Below, in pieces: positions 19,753 through 27,517 of a stretch of 64,000 nucleotides of DNA. Made by a program: the position numbers and the translations under genes. Location of the stretch: NCBI GenBank assembly GCA_963805945.1, contig CAWDVP010000001.1, positions 256,001 through 320,000 on the forward strand, in the 5' to 3' direction. Numbering within the stretch: position 1 is the first letter of the stretch; each line of letters starts with the position of its first letter. This DNA comes from Vulcanimicrobiota bacterium (GTDB taxonomy: Bacteria > Vulcanimicrobiota > Vulcanimicrobiia > Eremiobacterales > Eremiobacteraceae). The notes under the pieces were generated by a model, which was not told where the DNA came from, searched no databases, and saw only the letters and a program-made list of their open reading frames with translations.

Positions 19753-20238
19753 TTATTGGGCGGGCTTGAAGACCAGCGCCACCCCGTTCATGCAGTAGCG
19801 CAGTCCGGTCGGCTTCGGCCCGTCGTCGAACACGTGGCCGAGATGTCCGCCGCAGCGACGGCAATGCACCTCGGTGCGCACCTCTAAGAACGACGTGTCG
19901 CGCGTCGTGCCGATAGCGTTCGGCAACGGCGCCCAGAAACTCGGCCAGCCGGTCCCGCTGTCGTACTTGGTCTTCGACGAGAACAGCTGGAGTTCGCAGC
20001 CGGCGCACGAGTATATCCCCGGCCGCGTCTCGAGATCGAGCGGACTGGTGAACGCCGTCTCGGTCCCCTGCTCGCGCAGCACGTAGAACTGCTCCGGCGT
20101 GAGCCGCTTCTTCCACTCTTCGGTGCTGTAGCTCACTTCGTATGTCTGCGCCGAGCGTGCGGCGCGGCGCGAATTAGCCACGCCTACGGCGGCGGCGATC
20201 GCGGCGAGTGTCCCTGTGATCCAAGTGCGTCGAGTCAT
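19753..20238 (-). CDS. msrB: Peptide-methionine (R)-S-oxide reductase with N-terminal export signal
   Basis: GTETAF, CAGC, KYDSGTGWPSF, RTEVHCRRCGGHLGHVFDDGP, RYCMNG; TRRTWI Tat-like leader; GAGGGA SD. Confidence 0.95.
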   Translation of the reverse strand: MTRRTWITGTLAAIAAAVGVANSRRAARSAQTYEVSYSTEEWKKRLTPEQFYVLREQGTETAFTSPLDLETRPGIYSCAGCELQLFSSKTKYDSGTGWPSFWAPLPNAIGTTRDTSFLEVRTEVHCRRCGGHLGHVFDDGPKPTGLRYCMNGVALVFKPAQ

Positions 20239-20356
20239 GATGTCCCTCGTCAAGCGTACTTTCTCTGTGTGGATATACGTTGTCCCGGTGGTTTTGGATG
20301 CGGGTACCCCGCCGGCGCGGGTGAATGCTCCCTATTTCGCCAAGCGTGCAAGCGAT

Positions 20357-21223
20357 ATGCAATTCAAGACCTTCAGTTGGCCGGTCAGCATCGGCCTGCT
20401 CATCATCCACTTGATCGCGTTCGCGGCGTTCTTCCCGTACTTCTTCTCGTGGGGCGGCGTTGCCGTCGCGCTGGGGCTGTGGTGGATGACGGGCGCCGTC
20501 GGGATCGCGCTATGCTACCACCGCATGCTGACGCATCGCAGCATAGAAATGCCAAAGCCGCTCGAATATTTCGCCGCGTTGTGCGGCACGCTCTCGCTGC
20601 AGGGCGGCCCCATCGAATGGGTGGCGACGCATCGCCTCCATCATGCGCACGCCGACGACGAGGGCGACCCGCACGACGCGCATCGCGGTCTCATCTGGAC
20701 GCACATCGACTGGCTCTACAAGCCCAATGATGCGCGCCCGAGCGTGGAAGAACAACAGCGCTACGCGATGGACCTGTACTCCCAACCGTACTACCGGTTC
20801 TTGCAGCGCTATCAGCTGTGGTTGCAGGTCGCACTCGGTCTCGTGCTCTTCGCGTTCGGCGGCGCGTCCTGGGTCGTGTGGGGCATCTTCGCGCGCTTGG
20901 TCTTCGTCTACCACATCACGTGGTTCGTGAACAGCGCGGCGCACAAGTACGGCTATCGCACCTACAAGACGACAGACCTCTCCACCAACTGCTGGTGGGT
21001 CGCGCTGCTCACCTGGGGCGAAGGCTGGCACAACAACCACCATGCCTTCCCGTTCTCAGCGCGCCATGGGCTGCGCTGGTTCGAGTTCGATCCGACTTGG
21101 ATCCAGATCAAAGTGCTCAAGGCGCTCCACTTGGTGCGCGACGTCAAACTGCCGTCACCCGCCATGCTCGAACGTCTCGCCGCCCGCGCCACGGGATCGG
21201 CGCGGTCGCAGCCGCAAGGATAG
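20357..21223 (+). CDS. Delta-9-type fatty acid desaturase
   Basis: His boxes YHRMLTH, HRLHH, GEGWHNNHH. Confidence 0.92.
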   Translation: MQFKTFSWPVSIGLLIIHLIAFAAFFPYFFSWGGVAVALGLWWMTGAVGIALCYHRMLTHRSIEMPKPLEYFAALCGTLSLQGGPIEWVATHRLHHAHADDEGDPHDAHRGLIWTHIDWLYKPNDARPSVEEQQRYAMDLYSQPYYRFLQRYQLWLQVALGLVLFAFGGASWVVWGIFARLVFVYHITWFVNSAAHKYGYRTYKTTDLSTNCWWVALLTWGEGWHNNHHAFPFSARHGLRWFEFDPTWIQIKVLKALHLVRDVKLPSPAMLERLAARATGSARSQPQG

Positions 21224-21247
21224 TCTCAAGGAGGCGCGGGAAAGCGC

Positions 21248-22588
21248 ATGTCGACACGCACGATCGAGACCAGCCGCCCGAGCGAGCCCGCTCCAGAACC
21301 GGCGAGCGTTTCGGCCGCACGTGATGTCGTCCAAAGACTTTTCGCGGGTATCGACCTTCCCGTCTCCGTGATCCTCGCCGACGGCACCCCGTTGTTCGCG
21401 TCAACCGCCGCGCCGAAAACCACCTTCGTCCTCGCGCATCCCGGCGTACTGCGTTCGCTCACCGCGCGCGCGTCAGATCTCGCCGCGGGCGAGGCGGTCG
21501 TGCACGGCGACATCAAGGTGCGCGGCGACGCGGAAGGCGCGTTCGCCGCCATGGACGCGATCGTCGGACTGCGCACGCCGAAGGAATGGCTGGCGATCGG
21601 CGCGCTGATCACCCGCCTGCCGCGCGCCCGCAGCGCGCAGACGGCTCAAGGAAGAGGGCCGGCCCGTCTGCATGGACGCGTGCATTCGATCGAGCGCGAC
21701 CGTCTGGCGATCTCGTACCATTACGACGTCTCCAATGAGTTCTTCGCCCTCTGGCTCGGACACGAGATGACGTACTCGTGCGCGTACTTCCGCCATGCGA
21801 CCGACACGCTTGATCAAGCGCAGGCGCAGAAGTACGACCTCATCTGCCGCAAGCTGCGGCTGCGCGCCGGCGAGCGGCTGCTCGACGTCGGCTGCGGCTG
21901 GGGCGGCTTGGTCCGTTTCGCCGCGCGCGAATACGGGGCTCGCACCGTCGGCATCACCTTGAGCCGCAAGCAGGCGGAGTACGCGCAAGCGCGCGGCGCA
22001 GCCGAAGGGCTTGATGCGCTCAGCCGTGTCGTGCTGCTCGACTATCGCGAGCTCGGCACGCTCGGTCCTTTTGATAAGGCGGCGAGCATCGGCATGGTCG
22101 AGCATGTCGGCGAAGAGCGCCTGACCGACTACTTCCGTTGCGTCTACGACGCGCTCGTGCCCGGCGGTGTCTTCCTCAACCACGGGATCGTGAAGCAGCA
22201 TGCGGCGGCGCGCGGTTTGGCGGAGCGCTTCTTCCCGCCCAACTCGCGCTTCATCGAGCACTACGTCTTTCCGGACGGCGACATACCGCGCTTGTGGAGC
22301 ATGTGTCGCGCCTCGCAGGACGAGGGTTTTGAGGTGCGCGACGTCGAGAATCTGCGCGAGCACTACGCGCTCACGCTGCGCATGTGGGTGGCGGGACTCG
22401 AGGCGCATGAGGCCCAGGCGCGCGCGCTCGTCGGGGACGAGACCTACAACGTGTGGCGTTTCTACATGTCGGGCTCCGCGCGCACCTTCGCGGTCGGCCG
22501 CATGGGCATCGTGCAGATGCTGCTCGCGAAGCGGACGGGCGACGGGCGCGCGCTCGTGCCCCCGACGCGCGACGACATCTACAAGTGA
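21248..22588 (+). CDS. cfa: Cyclopropane-fatty-acyl-phospholipid synthase family methyltransferase
   Basis: YHYDVSNEFF, MTYSCAYF, LLDVGCGWG, SIGMVEHVG, YVFPDG, ENLREHYALTL. Confidence 0.88.
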   Translation: MSTRTIETSRPSEPAPEPASVSAARDVVQRLFAGIDLPVSVILADGTPLFASTAAPKTTFVLAHPGVLRSLTARASDLAAGEAVVHGDIKVRGDAEGAFAAMDAIVGLRTPKEWLAIGALITRLPRARSAQTAQGRGPARLHGRVHSIERDRLAISYHYDVSNEFFALWLGHEMTYSCAYFRHATDTLDQAQAQKYDLICRKLRLRAGERLLDVGCGWGGLVRFAAREYGARTVGITLSRKQAEYAQARGAAEGLDALSRVVLLDYRELGTLGPFDKAASIGMVEHVGEERLTDYFRCVYDALVPGGVFLNHGIVKQHAAARGLAERFFPPNSRFIEHYVFPDGDIPRLWSMCRASQDEGFEVRDVENLREHYALTLRMWVAGLEAHEAQARALVGDETYNVWRFYMSGSARTFAVGRMGIVQMLLAKRTGDGRALVPPTRDDIYK

Positions 22589-22619: not shown

Positions 22620-25433
22620 TCAGGACTTCAGCTTCGCGATAAGCTCCGCACGCGAGCCGGCTTCCATCTTCGTGAGCACGGAGGAGACGTGGGTCTCGAC
22701 GGTGCGTTCGCTGATGACGAGCGCCTCGGCGATCGCTTTGTTGGTCTTGCCCTGCACGAGCAGGTCGCAGATCTCGCGCTCGCGGGCGGTGAGCTCGCTC
22801 TTGGTCCGCCCACGCCGGTTGACGGGGTTGAGCAGCGCCTCGAGGCGGCGCGCATCGCGTGCCGCGCCGGTCCGTCTGTAGATCTCGAACGCCTCGGGCA
22901 TCTCGCCCGCGAGTTCGAGCGCCTGCGCTTCGAGCAAGGGCCAGCCGATCGCCTTGAACCGCGCCGCCGCGTCGCGCGCCGCTGCGGCGGCCGCTTCACG
23001 GTCCTTGGACCGGTGACGTTCGAAGGCGTCGAACAGCGCGAGATATGCCGGCAGCGTGGCCACTGCGGAGAGGTCTGCGGTGCGCTGCAGCAGCGCTCGC
23101 GCACGCGGCGCGTCCGCGAGATCGCCGTGCTGCGCCACCATCGTCAGCAGGCGCTCGGCGTCGCTCGGACCGGGATGCGACGTGATATGCTCGAGCGCGT
23201 CGAGCGCGCGGTGCAGCAGGGCAGCGGCTTCGTCGTGTTTGTTCTGCGCCGCGTGCCGCTCGACAAACGCGGCGAGCGCGCCGATGAGCGTCGAGTCGGT
23301 GGAGGTGAGACCGAAATCGATGAGGTCTTTCTTGGCGGTGCGACGCACCAGCTCGTCGTCGTTGAGGGCGAGCCCCAATGGGATCGCGACGCCCGCGAGG
23401 TGGATGCGAAAACTCGGCATTTCGATGCCCGCGGCGAGCGCTTCGTCGACGAGCGCCTTCGCCCGCGCCAACTCCCCTTCGAGGAGCGCGGCGTACGCGG
23501 CGTAGACGAGCGTCCAGTTGACCGTGAGACCGCCGAGTTTTGTCGCTCGCGCGATCTCCAACGCCCGTTCAAAACCGCCTCGCGCCGCCTCGCGCTCACC
23601 GATGAGCGCCATGATGCCGGCGTAGTTCCCCCAGCAGCGCACCGCCGCGCGGACGTCGCGCTCGAGCGCGGCCGCCTCGACCGCCTTCGTGGTGAATTCG
23701 AGCGCTTCGCGCGGCCGGCCGAGCCCGATCGCGAGCGACGCACGGTTCTCCCAGAAGCTCACGAGCTCGGCCGGCCGCCGCGCTGCCGCAGCGCGCTCCG
23801 CCTCGCGTTCGTGCTCGCGGGCCTTGTCGGGGTCCCAGCGATACGACGTGTGAAGACCCAGCAGCTCGACATGCGTGAAGAAGAAAGCGGGACTTGCCGG
23901 ATTCGATCCGACCAGCTCGAGCGCCAGACGACAGTCGCGCAGGTGCCCCTCTGTGTCTCCCAGCGTGAGGCGCTGACGGGCGAGACGGAGCGCCGTCCGC
24001 GCTGCATCCTCAGTGGCGTCTGCCGACCGGTAGTACGCGAACGCTTCTTCCAGCGCTCGAACCGCTCGTTCTCCGAAACCGGCTTGATGCAGCACATCGG
24101 CGAACTTGCGGTTGAGCGCGGCGCGCTGTGGGCCTGCGAGCGCGCCCGTATCGAGGGCGCGGCCGTAGCACGTCACCGCATCCCGGTAGGCGAAGAATTC
24201 AAACGCGAGATCGCCGGCGCTCTCGTTGTAGCGAGCGGCCTTCTCGGCGTCGTGCGACTGCCAGTAATGGTATGCCAGCTCGGCGATATGCGCCTCGACG
24301 TCGGCAGAGGCCTCGAGCGCGTCCCCGATGCGCCGATGCAGGCCGCGCGTCTCGGCGACCAGCAGCTCGGCGTAGAGCGCTTCGCGGATGAGCTCGTGCC
24401 GGAAGGCGTAACGGATATCGGTGCCGGCCTCCTCGACGAGCAACTGCAGACCGATGGCGCGCTTGAGCATCTCGATGACGCGCTCGATCTCGCGACCGGA
24501 GATCGCGGCCAGGAATTCGGCGCTGAAGCGGCGCCCGATCGCCGCGGCCTGCGCGAGCAGCGTCCGATCGAGATCGTCCATGCCCGCGACGCGTTCGCTG
24601 ACCGCTTGGGCCACCGAGCCCGGCAGCTGCCGGCTATTCGCGCGGTCGCCCGCTTCGACGTTCTTGAGCAGCTCTTCGGCGAACAGCGGATTGCCTTCGG
24701 CCCGTTCGCAGATCGCGCCGACCGTGACGGCCGGCAAGGGCGCCCTATCCTCCAACGCCCGTTCCACCAGCTCGCGCATATCGGCGTCGGTCAACGGCCC
24801 GAGATCGAGGCGCTGCACCTGCGGATATCGGCCGAGCTTGGCCAACACGGACCGCAGCTGGTGTCCGCGGGGCAGTTCATCAGAGCGGAAAGTGACGACG
24901 ATGACGAGTCGCGACGCCACGATGCGCGGCGCGAGATGCAGCAGCAGCTCCAAGGTCGCGCTATCCGCCCATTGGAGATCCTCGATGACCACGACCGTCG
25001 GCGTCGCCGCAGCGAAGCGCACCAGCGCGTCGGCTAAGGCGTTGAACTGGAGCAGTTTATCACGCGCGGGCTCCGCTGCAGTCACGCCCGCCTCTGCGAG
25101 CGCCGGCAGCAGCGGTGCGATCGCTTTGCGCAGCGCGGTCGCGCCGCGCAAAGCCGATGGTTCGATGACATCGAGCGTCTCGATGACGGCGAGGAACGGC
25201 GCGAAGGGAGATTGGACGTATTCGAGACAGCCGCCGACCGCGCAGCGGGCGCCGCGCCCCTCGAGGCTCGCGCAGAACTCGGCGACGAGCCGGCTCTTGC
25301 CCGCGCCGCCGTCGCCTGCCACGATGCAGAGCGAGCCCTCGCCCCGCTCTGCCGCGACGATGCGATCCCGCAGCGCGGCGAGTTGCGGCCAGCGATTGAC
25401 GAGACCCCGCCCGTGCGGAGGTGGAGTCGGCAT
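22620..25433 (-). CDS. STAND-type AAA ATPase / TPR / LuxR-HTH transcriptional regulator
   Basis: GDGGAGKS Walker A, VIEDLQWAD Walker B, EGNPLF, FRHELIREALY, C-terminal LTAREREI...TNKAIAEALVISERTVETHV. Confidence 0.9.
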   Translation of the reverse strand: MPTPPPHGRGLVNRWPQLAALRDRIVAAERGEGSLCIVAGDGGAGKSRLVAEFCASLEGRGARCAVGGCLEYVQSPFAPFLAVIETLDVIEPSALRGATALRKAIAPLLPALAEAGVTAAEPARDKLLQFNALADALVRFAAATPTVVVIEDLQWADSATLELLLHLAPRIVASRLVIVVTFRSDELPRGHQLRSVLAKLGRYPQVQRLDLGPLTDADMRELVERALEDRAPLPAVTVGAICERAEGNPLFAEELLKNVEAGDRANSRQLPGSVAQAVSERVAGMDDLDRTLLAQAAAIGRRFSAEFLAAISGREIERVIEMLKRAIGLQLLVEEAGTDIRYAFRHELIREALYAELLVAETRGLHRRIGDALEASADVEAHIAELAYHYWQSHDAEKAARYNESAGDLAFEFFAYRDAVTCYGRALDTGALAGPQRAALNRKFADVLHQAGFGERAVRALEEAFAYYRSADATEDAARTALRLARQRLTLGDTEGHLRDCRLALELVGSNPASPAFFFTHVELLGLHTSYRWDPDKAREHEREAERAAAARRPAELVSFWENRASLAIGLGRPREALEFTTKAVEAAALERDVRAAVRCWGNYAGIMALIGEREAARGGFERALEIARATKLGGLTVNWTLVYAAYAALLEGELARAKALVDEALAAGIEMPSFRIHLAGVAIPLGLALNDDELVRRTAKKDLIDFGLTSTDSTLIGALAAFVERHAAQNKHDEAAALLHRALDALEHITSHPGPSDAERLLTMVAQHGDLADAPRARALLQRTADLSAVATLPAYLALFDAFERHRSKDREAAAAAARDAAARFKAIGWPLLEAQALELAGEMPEAFEIYRRTGAARDARRLEALLNPVNRRGRTKSELTAREREICDLLVQGKTNKAIAEALVISERTVETHVSSVLTKMEAGSRAELIAKLKS

Positions 25434-25502: not shown

Positions 25503-25970
25503 CTAGCGCTTGCGTTTGGACTTCGCGGCAGCCGCTTTCCCTTTGGCCTTCGGCTCCTTCTTCAGCGCTGCCGGATAGCCCGACTGGACGTGGCCACCGC
25601 CTGGCGGCCAGGGGAAGGGCAAGCGGGGGCGAGGTACTCCGGGATCGCCAGGCGCGTCCGGCCAGACATGTTGGACGTGGCCGCCGATGTAAGGATTCTC
25701 GGGGTTCGTCCGCAGACCGTGCTGGACATGGCCGCCCTGCATGGCTTTACCCTGATGCTCGGCGTCTATCTCTTGGTTGACGTCGTGCGCCCTATCCTTC
25801 GGAGGGCTCTCTTTGAAGAGGCCGACTTGCTTCATCGTCAGACCGTACGCGTCGGCCCAACCGGCGGTGTCGGCGTCGCCGTAAAAATCGTTGCGCGCGT
25901 CCTCATCAAAGGTGAGGAGCAACGCAAGCGCGGTGAATCGGTAGTAGGTGCCTGACGTTCTGCGCGCCAT
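25503..25970 (-). CDS. Putative split-borosin RiPP precursor: LigA-like borosin-binding domain, 3x GGHVQ repeats, Lys-rich tail
   Basis: AAGGAG SD; N-terminus LTFDEDARNDF...AYGLTMKQV resembles the SonA BBD pattern; lies directly downstream of a borosin methyltransferase. Confidence 0.75.
   Translation of the reverse strand: MARRTSGTYYRFTALALLLTFDEDARNDFYGDADTAGWADAYGLTMKQVGLFKESPPKDRAHDVNQEIDAEHQGKAMQGGHVQHGLRTNPENPYIGGHVQHVWPDAPGDPGVPRPRLPFPWPPGGGHVQSGYPAALKKEPKAKGKAAAAKSKRKR
25584..25736 (-). repeat. Three in-frame GGHVQ-encoding repeats in the precursor
   Basis: + strand ctggacatggccgcc (25722-25736), ttggacgtggccgcc (25671-25685), ctggacgtggccacc (25584-25598). Confidence 0.9.
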
Positions 25971-26034
25971 GATGCTACGCTCCTTTAGAAAGCACGAAGG
26001 CATTCTGACCGGTGCGTCAGGCGGCGGCCTTCTT

Positions 26035-26886
26035 TCAGCCCCGAGGGGGAACCTTCGCCTTCCGACGTCCCTTCGTGGAACGCGGCTGCACGGGTGACAA
26101 GCGCTGGAGCCCCAGCCGTCGCAGCATGCGCGCGTCGGTGGTTCCGGGCCGCTTGGGTGGCGCGTAGAGCGTGGACGTGACGCCGACCGATGCCCGTGCG
26201 AGATCCCGCAGTGCTACGCGTTGGATCGACGGCGCGGCGAGGGGCGTGGGCGCGGCGTCGTAGATCGTGACGACGTGTTTCGGACCGTACCGTCGGATCA
26301 GCTCTCGCGCGAGGATCGCCAGTCCGCTGCCGCCGTAGGTCTGCTTATGCGTGAGGTCGCCGACGACCCCGATCTGGAACAGCACGAGCGGAATCGTCGA
26401 TTCGAACTTCGGTCTGCTGATCAAGAACGATGTCGCCTCGAAGGTGAGGCAACCGCTCCTCGCCGGGTCGACACCCAGGTCTGCGAACAGGCAATCCTCG
26501 CTCGATACGCCGGGCAGCATCGCGGCGGCGCGGCCGGACTCTCTCACGCGCACGATCGCCTCCGCCGTCGCGTCGACGAAGACCCCTGGATGGCCGTATG
26601 TCACCATGCAGACGTTCTCACCGCGGCGCACGTACGAAAGGACATCTTTCACGATGGCCTCGTAGATCCGCGCCCGGATCCGACCTGGTTTGTAGTGATG
26701 ATTGAGGGGTTCGGCGGTCGGGTTCAGCCGCTTGATCATCGCGGCGGTGATGAAGTCGGTGACCAAGTGCAGGACCTTGTCGGCACGCGTGATCGCGACG
26801 CGAGCGCCCGGCGTCAGATCCCGCCCGATCTGTATCCCGGTCCCGACGACTGTGAGCGATCCGCGTCGGGTTTGCGCGCGCTTCAT
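26035..26886 (-). CDS. Borosin-type SAM-dependent peptide backbone alpha-N-methyltransferase (OphMA/SonM-like, tetrapyrrole methylase fold)
   Basis: GSLTVVGTGI, ADKV, Y-x5-R-x3-Y (HYKPGRIRARIY), YGHPGVFV, MLPGVSSEDCLFADLGVDP, GCLTFEAT, LVLFQIG motifs. Confidence 0.9.
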   Translation of the reverse strand: MKRAQTRRGSLTVVGTGIQIGRDLTPGARVAITRADKVLHLVTDFITAAMIKRLNPTAEPLNHHYKPGRIRARIYEAIVKDVLSYVRRGENVCMVTYGHPGVFVDATAEAIVRVRESGRAAAMLPGVSSEDCLFADLGVDPARSGCLTFEATSFLISRPKFESTIPLVLFQIGVVGDLTHKQTYGGSGLAILARELIRRYGPKHVVTIYDAAPTPLAAPSIQRVALRDLARASVGVTSTLYAPPKRPGTTDARMLRRLGLQRLSPVQPRSTKGRRKAKVPPRG

Positions 26887-26953: not shown

Positions 26954-27463
26954 CTAGTTCGCGGCGGCTGCCGGTGCGCGGCGCGCGACGAGCGAGAGCA
27001 ACGCGCCTGCGACAGCGGCCACGATTATGATCCATGCTGCGTTCGGATCGCTCAAGAGCCCGAGCGGCGCTTGCGCATCGAGCGCATAGGCGCCGACGCC
27101 GCCAAAGGCGATCGCGAGCGCGGCGGCGATATTCGCGAGATTGTACTCGTAGCCGCCGTTGCTCGCCCAAAATCCCTTGCCGAAATGCACGGTGGCGATA
27201 GCGACGATCATCACCGCGATGATGAGCGCCGGGCCGACCGGATTGAGCCAGCCGAGCGCCGTGAGCAATCCGCCTGCGAGCTCACCGAAGCCGGCGACGA
27301 ACGCGAAGAGCACTCCCGGCTTCATGCCGAGGCCTTCGAAGAAGCCGCCGGTGCCTTTGAGGCCATAGCCGCCGAACCAGCCGAACAATTTCTGCGCGCC
27401 GTGCGCGAAGAAGATGGTGCCGAGCAGCAGGCGCGCGATGAGGAGTCCAATGCTTGTGATCAT
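26954..27463 (-). CDS. DoxX family membrane protein
   Basis: ARLLLGTIFFAHGAQKLFGWFGG, VHFGKGFW..NGGYEY; TATAAT 6 nt before ATG. Confidence 0.92.
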   Translation of the reverse strand: MITSIGLLIARLLLGTIFFAHGAQKLFGWFGGYGLKGTGGFFEGLGMKPGVLFAFVAGFGELAGGLLTALGWLNPVGPALIIAVMIVAIATVHFGKGFWASNGGYEYNLANIAAALAIAFGGVGAYALDAQAPLGLLSDPNAAWIIIVAAVAGALLSLVARRAPAAAAN

Positions 27464-27469
27464 GACGGG

Positions 27470-27517
27470 ATTATAGTCTTAAATGGGCCATAATGTAAGT
27501 ACGGACTATTATGACCC
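27470..27517 (-). promoter_or_regulatory. Leaderless sigma70 -10 (TATAAT) and upstream inverted-repeat operator of doxX
   Basis: ATTATA at 27470-27475 on +; GGGCCATAAT-N13-ATTATGACCC at 27485-27517. Confidence 0.55.

Follow-up and report, generated by a model that had tools for sequence, protein, structure and literature searches.

A predicted split borosin with a multi-core precursor beside an apparently mosaic LuxR-type regulator in an Eremiobacteraceae genome

Two adjacent genes in a Vulcanimicrobiota bacterium of the family Eremiobacteraceae, one for a stand-alone backbone N-methyltransferase and one for a small protein with a divergent borosin-binding domain (BBD) and a repeated tail, have by sequence a Type IV split-borosin architecture in which the precursor is multi-core. 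Very probably the methyltransferase binds the precursor through its five-helix leader and, with SAM as donor, methylates backbone amides in the tail. Such a pair alone would be ordinary because split borosins are already catalogued (about 2,600 clusters): a RODEO listing holds 2,596 borosin clusters (10.1101/2024.01.09.574750), the datasets of that preprint may already include this pair or multi-core precursors of Type IV, and in one borosin network Type IV accounts for 79% (10.1101/2021.12.24.474128). It is the apparent swap of the pair, together with the sensor region of the adjoining regulator, onto a fixed DNA-binding domain that merits follow-up, as it opens the function of bacterial borosins to testing. 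Positions below are those of the window, the whole stretch of 64,000 nucleotides that was analysed.

Table 1. Position of the predicted borosin genes, their parts and their neighbours in the window
Feature	Position	Strand	Remark
Predicted stand-alone borosin alpha-N-methyltransferase, 283 aa	26035..26886	-	No fused BBD or extra domain
Candidate precursor, 155 aa	25503..25970	-	BBD leader, three-repeat core and Lys-rich tail; AAGGAG upstream
BBD-like five-helix leader, residues 11-75	25746..25940	-	
Core repeat 1, GGHVQH, residues 79-84	25719..25736	-	V82 is the putative methylation site
Core repeat 2, GGHVQH, residues 96-101	25668..25685	-	
Core repeat 3, GGHVQS, residues 125-130	25581..25598	-	WPPG ahead of it
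Lys/Arg-rich C-terminal tail of precursor	25506..25562	-	Character kept in both homologues
AAA_16-TPR-LuxR (LAL/MalT-type STAND) regulator, 937 aa	22620..25433	-	Proposed receptor; approximate sensor region, residues 1-850
LuxR DNA-binding domain of regulator	22635..22796	-	Apparent breakpoint just N-terminal of domain
DoxX-family membrane protein	26954..27463	-	Resident flanking gene, 67 nt upstream of methyltransferase
Sigma-70-like promoter match ahead of DoxX	27470..27499	-	10/12; 1 found against 0.5 expected, not significant

The methyltransferase and its candidate precursor

Read along the minus strand, DoxX comes first, followed by methyltransferase, precursor and regulator, with gaps of 67, 64 and 69 nt, and each gene is present as a single copy in the 2.3-Mb, 82%-complete genome; GC content is even across the locus region. 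The DoxX gene is possibly co-transcribed with the methyltransferase, and the matches returned by a promoter and terminator scan of the locus are at chance level. A role for DoxX as a maturation partner of the MNIO/Hvf type was considered and rejected, since its 31.5 bits fall short of the cut-off of 80 and it is a resident flanking gene. No exporter, protease or signal peptide was found among the adjoining genes and the ORFs of the locus. Genes for a fatty-acid desaturase and a cyclopropane fatty-acid (CFA) synthase (window 20216-22588, plus strand) converge on the regulator and are syntenic in three close relatives.

The earlier note had taken the 283-aa ORF for a borosin methyltransferase on the strength of several short motifs. 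The ORF lies where it was described and contains all of them, and the Y-x5-R-x3-Y spacing likened there to the OphMA active site is borne out by alignment, since Y65, R71 and Y75 fall opposite Y66, R72 and Y76 of OphMA and Y58, R67 and Y71 of SonM. All 25 PDB matches of the single sequence (E up to 0.001) are OphMA, dbOphMA, MroMA or SonM, at 1e-39 to 1e-45. In the comparison with tetrapyrrole methylases that the note had called for, a profile of 48 relatives matched SonM at 2.8e-89 and three precorrin methylases at about 1e-5. Pfam gives TP_methylase only, and the NCBIfam models for CobJ, CobI, CysG and YabN give 13-33 bits where their cut-offs are 163-525, which leaves the protein outside those tetrapyrrole methylase families. 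Catalytic roles are described for Y58, R67, Y71, Y93 and Q167 of SonM (PMC8429565); these residues, with F99 and E146, correspond here to Y65, R71, Y75, Y97 and Q171, with F103 and E150, while SonM W166 is Phe, as in OphMA, and SonM E173 is Asp. Among 47 relatives Y65, R71, Y75, Y97 and Q171 occur in 45, 46, 47, 47 and 47, respectively. The enzyme deviates at 13 positions conserved in at least 80% of its relatives (e.g., His to Ala at 108), and no Shine-Dalgarno sequence was seen ahead of its ATG. Its dN/dS, calculated against a metagenome contig (L098), is 0.29. On this sequence evidence the 283-aa protein is a borosin alpha-N-methyltransferase, and from the intact catalytic residues and purifying selection we infer that it is active. 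The expectation that automated pipelines would label the pair as a tetrapyrrole methylase and a hypothetical protein holds for generic annotation only, because borosin-aware tools use the YGHP and DCLFAD motifs on which the BorosinMT rule relies (10.1101/2021.12.24.474128), and both are present.

The precursor gene had also been described correctly, with its ATG at 25970, 64 nt past the methyltransferase stop, and AAGGAG 9 nt upstream; the ORF finder reports the same frame as 166 aa from an ATG at 26003, and both homologues of the protein begin at the Met of the 155-aa form. Direct searches of Pfam, NCBIfam and PDB with the precursor matched no family, Foldseek with its model gave no match and ESM Atlas no usable one. 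The link to known leaders is indirect and runs through a profile, A2, which excludes the precursor itself and comprises 27 small ORFs directly upstream of related enzymes (one row from the unpublished genome G233), nine of which touch Pfam LigA, one of them above cut-off. In the PDB, A2 finds SonA (3e-10) and, more weakly, the OphMA clasp (about 0.002-0.003), and it is linked to the family profile of the precursor with a probability of 96.4. Among the 24,858 six-frame ORFs of the genome it ranks the 155-aa ORF first (E 3.6e-4; next 1.4), the sole BBD-like ORF detected by this search, and the score of 22 bits compares with a maximum of 9.1 in 2,000 shuffles; for this profile match, chance is excluded. 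In the AlphaFold2 model five helices span residues 11-75 with pLDDT of about 80-90, and repeats 1 and 2 form a low-confidence hairpin. A structure search placed SonA first of 48,161 chains, a weak match with unrelated chains within 1 Z (Z 4.6, rmsd 2.4 A, 52 residues), and the predicted enzyme-precursor complex scored 0.12 (mark 0.32), a value given no weight in either direction. By profile and model, the 155-aa ORF carries a divergent BBD. The SonA letters quoted in the earlier note agree with the PDB alignment, its by-eye register is that of the HMM, and the checks that it had proposed on a BBD/LigA-like leader and on conserved adjacency came out in its favour through the profile link, the five helices and the enzyme neighbour in the metagenome contig.

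Two large protein searches, one over 1.84 billion representatives, returned only P0003 (83%) and P0004 (42%) as homologues of the precursor; P0005 was dropped as a repetitive false match. Against the 401 genomes of the phylum, the precursor alignment found its own gene and one weak match only (E 0.0035, unpublished G276). The metagenome contig with the 83% homologue has the same order as here, of enzyme, precursor and regulator start, and gives the precursor a dN/dS of 0.23.

The repeats, the Lys-rich tail and the regulator neighbour were absent from the earlier note. Three in-frame GGHVQ(H/S) units lie in the tail of the precursor, and P0004 keeps four units with diverged spacers; the 18 repeat codons, a small sample, show no nonsynonymous and four synonymous changes relative to L098. 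The WPPG before repeat 3 recalls the WPPG/WPGG cores of same-genus precursors, and among the cores of relatives a short internal repeat is seen only in L080, apart from one basic tail. A His-Val motif is shared by only some of the family cores and was not counted as support. RHIM-like amyloid signalling was considered on account of VQxG and was set aside; by eye, the regulator N-terminus has no matching motif.

In the proposed mechanism the BBD leader would dock on the methyltransferase, whose Tyr and Arg residues would stabilise a deprotonated amide that then attacks SAM, as in established borosin chemistry. One or two methylations per GGHVQ repeat are most likely, probably at the Val residues V82, V99 and V128, because SonM prefers uncharged, mostly hydrophobic residues (PMC11751858) and multi-core RceA carries one methylation per repeat (10.1101/2021.12.24.474128). 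The methylated repeat peptide would either be freed by an unlinked protease or stay attached to the precursor. An enzyme of this kind may methylate polar His/Val/Gln repeats in trans, which would be useful for peptide engineering.

Sensor genes beside related pairs in the phylum

The enzyme is found in 69 of the 401 phylum genomes, with 6 of 6 in the same genus and 14 of 29 in the family (counts that include the unpublished G233 and G344). Wide loci were examined in 40 of the 68 other genomes, the remainder being two unpublished genomes, five distant ones, three that match only partially and 18 that mostly lie on short contigs. In 38 of these 40 loci the enzyme has a BBD ORF immediately upstream (one cut by a contig end), and the downstream precursor of the present locus is therefore an exception. 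Fused forms also occur. In L091:6373-7395(+) (G282) a BBD is fused ahead of the methyltransferase in a 340-aa protein, with a Pro-rich ORF upstream and DUF6065 downstream, which recalls type 0 borosins except that the linker is short; L097:6361-7830(+) (G099) encodes a fused, Type III-like bacterial borosin of 489 aa with enzyme, BBD and DVDV repeats.

A sensor gene adjoins the pair in 37 of the 40 loci, which owing to relatedness represent roughly five independent pairings. The sensors are of the AAA-TPR-LuxR (15), PDZ-membrane-GAF (13), cyclase-STAND-TPR (5) and HTH-STAND-TPR (4) types; only L073 and the two fused systems have no sensor neighbour. In each of the 14 other enzyme-bearing genomes of the family an AAA-TPR-LuxR regulator lies directly downstream. 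About six such sensor loci are present in this 2.3-Mb genome, and regulator-like matches number 0-9 per family genome; the best 13 in the family (including G233) all lie beside an enzyme, and none of 20 more distant regulator paralogues has a borosin gene nearby. Downstream of the closest published borosin-free paralogue (L099:5276-7436, G212:C68) come a basic ORF of 90 aa, YcaO and TfuA, which may be a further peptide-modification cassette attached to this receptor family. Two further ORFs of about 115 aa with a GGGxHVGPP motif (L100:5120-5470(-) and L101:4075-4419(+)) lie directly upstream of regulator paralogues, past an MFS transporter; they have no Pfam match, and no methyltransferase was found nearby. 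The PDZ-membrane-GAF proteins, directly after the enzyme in 13 loci within L070-L095, form an unannotated family of about 580 aa with weak or no Pfam matches, and two paralogues are encoded elsewhere in the present genome.

All six same-genus loci (L058-L063) have, upstream of the precursor, a divergent gene of the S9 prolyl-oligopeptidase family with an apparent signal peptide, often accompanied by a TonB-dependent receptor and TMEM175. The peptidase is a candidate processing enzyme or member of the regulon, and no close match to it was found in this 82%-complete genome. A second BBD-like precursor (L063:8601-8960(-), G355) lies 2.8 kb upstream of the cassette in one of these loci, adjoining the S9 peptidase.

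Mosaic structure of the locus and the proposed ligand

The locus is syntenic across the genus. Percentage identity to the same-genus locus L060, given for the present locus and then for L058, is 77 and 78 for the flanking MsrB, 81 and 86 for the desaturase, 63 and 70 for the CFA synthase and 83 and 84 for the LuxR domain, whereas it is 49 and 71 for the sensor region and 46 and 70 for the enzyme. The LuxR domain is 79-86% identical to its same-genus orthologues and 58-63% to those of three other genera; a sliding window along the regulator finds little or no same-genus excess up to about residue 840, then 86% against 64%. Trees of the LuxR domain group by genus (88/90, not starred), while that of the sensor region pairs this genome with another genus (99/98) and monophyly of the genus is rejected (p-AU 0.011, with the whole-protein tree already known before the test). 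The enzyme tree likewise places this genome outside the clade of the genus; monophyly of the genus is not rejected there, so that by the AU test enzyme xenology is not significant (p-AU 0.19). Enzyme and sensor region have different nearest relatives, and the usual upstream precursor and the divergent S9 peptidase of the six same-genus loci are missing at this place. The simplest reading is that enzyme, precursor and sensor region have been replaced up to a breakpoint immediately ahead of the DNA-binding domain. Receptor input, peptide and enzyme vary together over a conserved output domain, a pattern that linkage could also give.

MalT/LAL regulators sense ligands, and staphylococcal agr is an example of a peptide pherotype system. 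The apparent cassette swap suggests that the peptide may serve as a private signal or regulator ligand. In ComQXPA pherotypes the 5' region of the receptor gene is divergent (PMC12935306); by analogy, the methylated product would bind the TPR region of the regulator, and enzyme, precursor and sensor region would form an exchangeable specificity cassette on a conserved DNA-binding output. We regard the case for the methylated repeat peptide as the specific ligand of the regulator, in such a pherotype-like cassette, as evenly balanced, because linkage and a crossover in the conserved gene end would mimic the pattern and no export route is visible. The locus is nonetheless a compact test case, a two-gene peptide system with one candidate receptor, and a single reporter could test specificity because natural non-cognate cassettes, such as those of G071 and G134, share a nearly identical DNA-binding domain. 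Extended to the phylum, with backbone-N-methylated peptides as private ligands for sensors of the STAND-TPR and PDZ-membrane-GAF types and with enzyme-precursor-sensor cassettes exchanged among lineages over a fixed DNA-binding output, a pherotype-style system is a tentative proposal, somewhat more doubtful than probable. If true, it would supply the first biological function for bacterial borosins and the first RiPP ligand for cytoplasmic LAL regulators, and the locus would be a recent swap with an amplified three-copy signal; should the signalling reading fail, the locus adds one more to the roughly 2,600 catalogued clusters, distinguished by an unusual multi-core precursor. The native role of the son cluster is said to remain 'elusive' (PMC10549244). 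Literature searches, in which subscription journals are thinly covered, found nothing linking borosins with LuxR and, for borosins with TPR and signalling, only the 2021 survey (10.1101/2021.12.24.474128); for borosins and Eremiobacter they found only a paper on an FkbM-family backbone methylase, which mentions borosins once (PMC9259500).

Alternative readings and known systems

It is very improbable that the enzyme is a relic in decay or a tetrapyrrole methylase for which the 155-aa ORF is no substrate. The Pfam result, the 13 departures from consensus, the lack of a Shine-Dalgarno sequence and the absence of the usual upstream precursor would fit such a reading, but the NCBIfam scores (13-33 bits against 163-525) and the PDB profile (3e-89 against 1e-5) point away from tetrapyrrole methylases, and both genes are under purifying selection, with the 155-aa ORF the only BBD-like one detected in the genome. 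An ordinary split borosin is a weightier alternative, albeit an unlikely one: its peptide would act elsewhere, in defence, on metal or at the surface, and the regulator would only control the operon, as LAL activators control biosynthetic clusters, and travel with it by linkage. It is hard to reconcile with the observation that the sensor region, not the DNA-binding domain, moves with the cassette, or with the four unrelated sensor architectures that adjoin the pair, among which cyclases and PDZ-membrane-GAF proteins cannot be operon activators; such a neighbour is also missing from both fused-type borosins in the set of 40 loci. Set against this, GGDEF and other signalling, transport and regulatory domains are reported to be common neighbours in borosin clusters (10.1101/2021.12.24.474128). 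A crossover in the conserved gene end would yield the mosaic with no ligand-receptor coupling, and the His-rich repeat could bind metal.

The whole precursor might instead bind the regulator as an intracellular switch from which no peptide is released, with methylation reporting SAM/SAH status or acting as a slow timer. MalT is controlled by partner proteins, which counts for this reading, as do the cytoplasmic receptor and the absence of exporter, protease and signal peptide from the locus; SamA1, moreover, shows that methylation can be a recognition mark and not part of the product (10.1101/2024.01.09.574750). We nevertheless consider it improbable, in that hypervariable cassettes subject to exchange would serve no obvious purpose for a metabolic sensor, multi-copy release is suggested by the three to four identical cores, and the S9 peptidase of same-genus relatives, with its apparent signal peptide, often has a TonB receptor adjoining.

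For the predicted split borosin itself, among the closest known systems is SonM/SonA of Shewanella oneidensis (PDB 7LTC; PMC8429565, PMC10549244), which likewise has a discrete methyltransferase of about 260-280 aa with the same catalytic residues, a precursor with an N-terminal five-helix BBD, a cluster with no protease and an adjoining signalling gene. The precursor here is 155 aa long against 71 for SonA, with three repeated cores, a basic tail and a leader too divergent for direct detection, and its neighbour is a cytoplasmic AAA-TPR-LuxR regulator where the son cluster has a GGDEF protein. RceM/RceA of Rhodospirillum centenum (Type V; 10.1101/2021.12.24.474128) shares the multi-core precursor with near-identical repeats, but the ten DVIELSSGGEL repeats are unrelated in sequence and the Type V BBD lies in the enzyme, whereas here it lies in the precursor. 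OphMA, dbOphMA and MroMA, the best single-sequence PDB matches, have the same active site; in these fungal proteins, however, enzyme, clasp and core are one polypeptide and OphP makes the macrocyclic product, whereas the present genes are separate and have no OphP-like neighbour. Bacillus ComQXPA (PMC12935306) and agr resemble the locus in that modifying enzyme, peptide and receptor input vary together over a conserved output. They are not homologous to it, they use membrane histidine kinases with exported peptides, and signalling is proven for them and only proposed here. In two borosin loci of Proteobacteria, long ORFs with HPQI/IVHPQ repeats were also observed ahead of the enzyme gene (L037:4461-4979 and L041:4510-4956).
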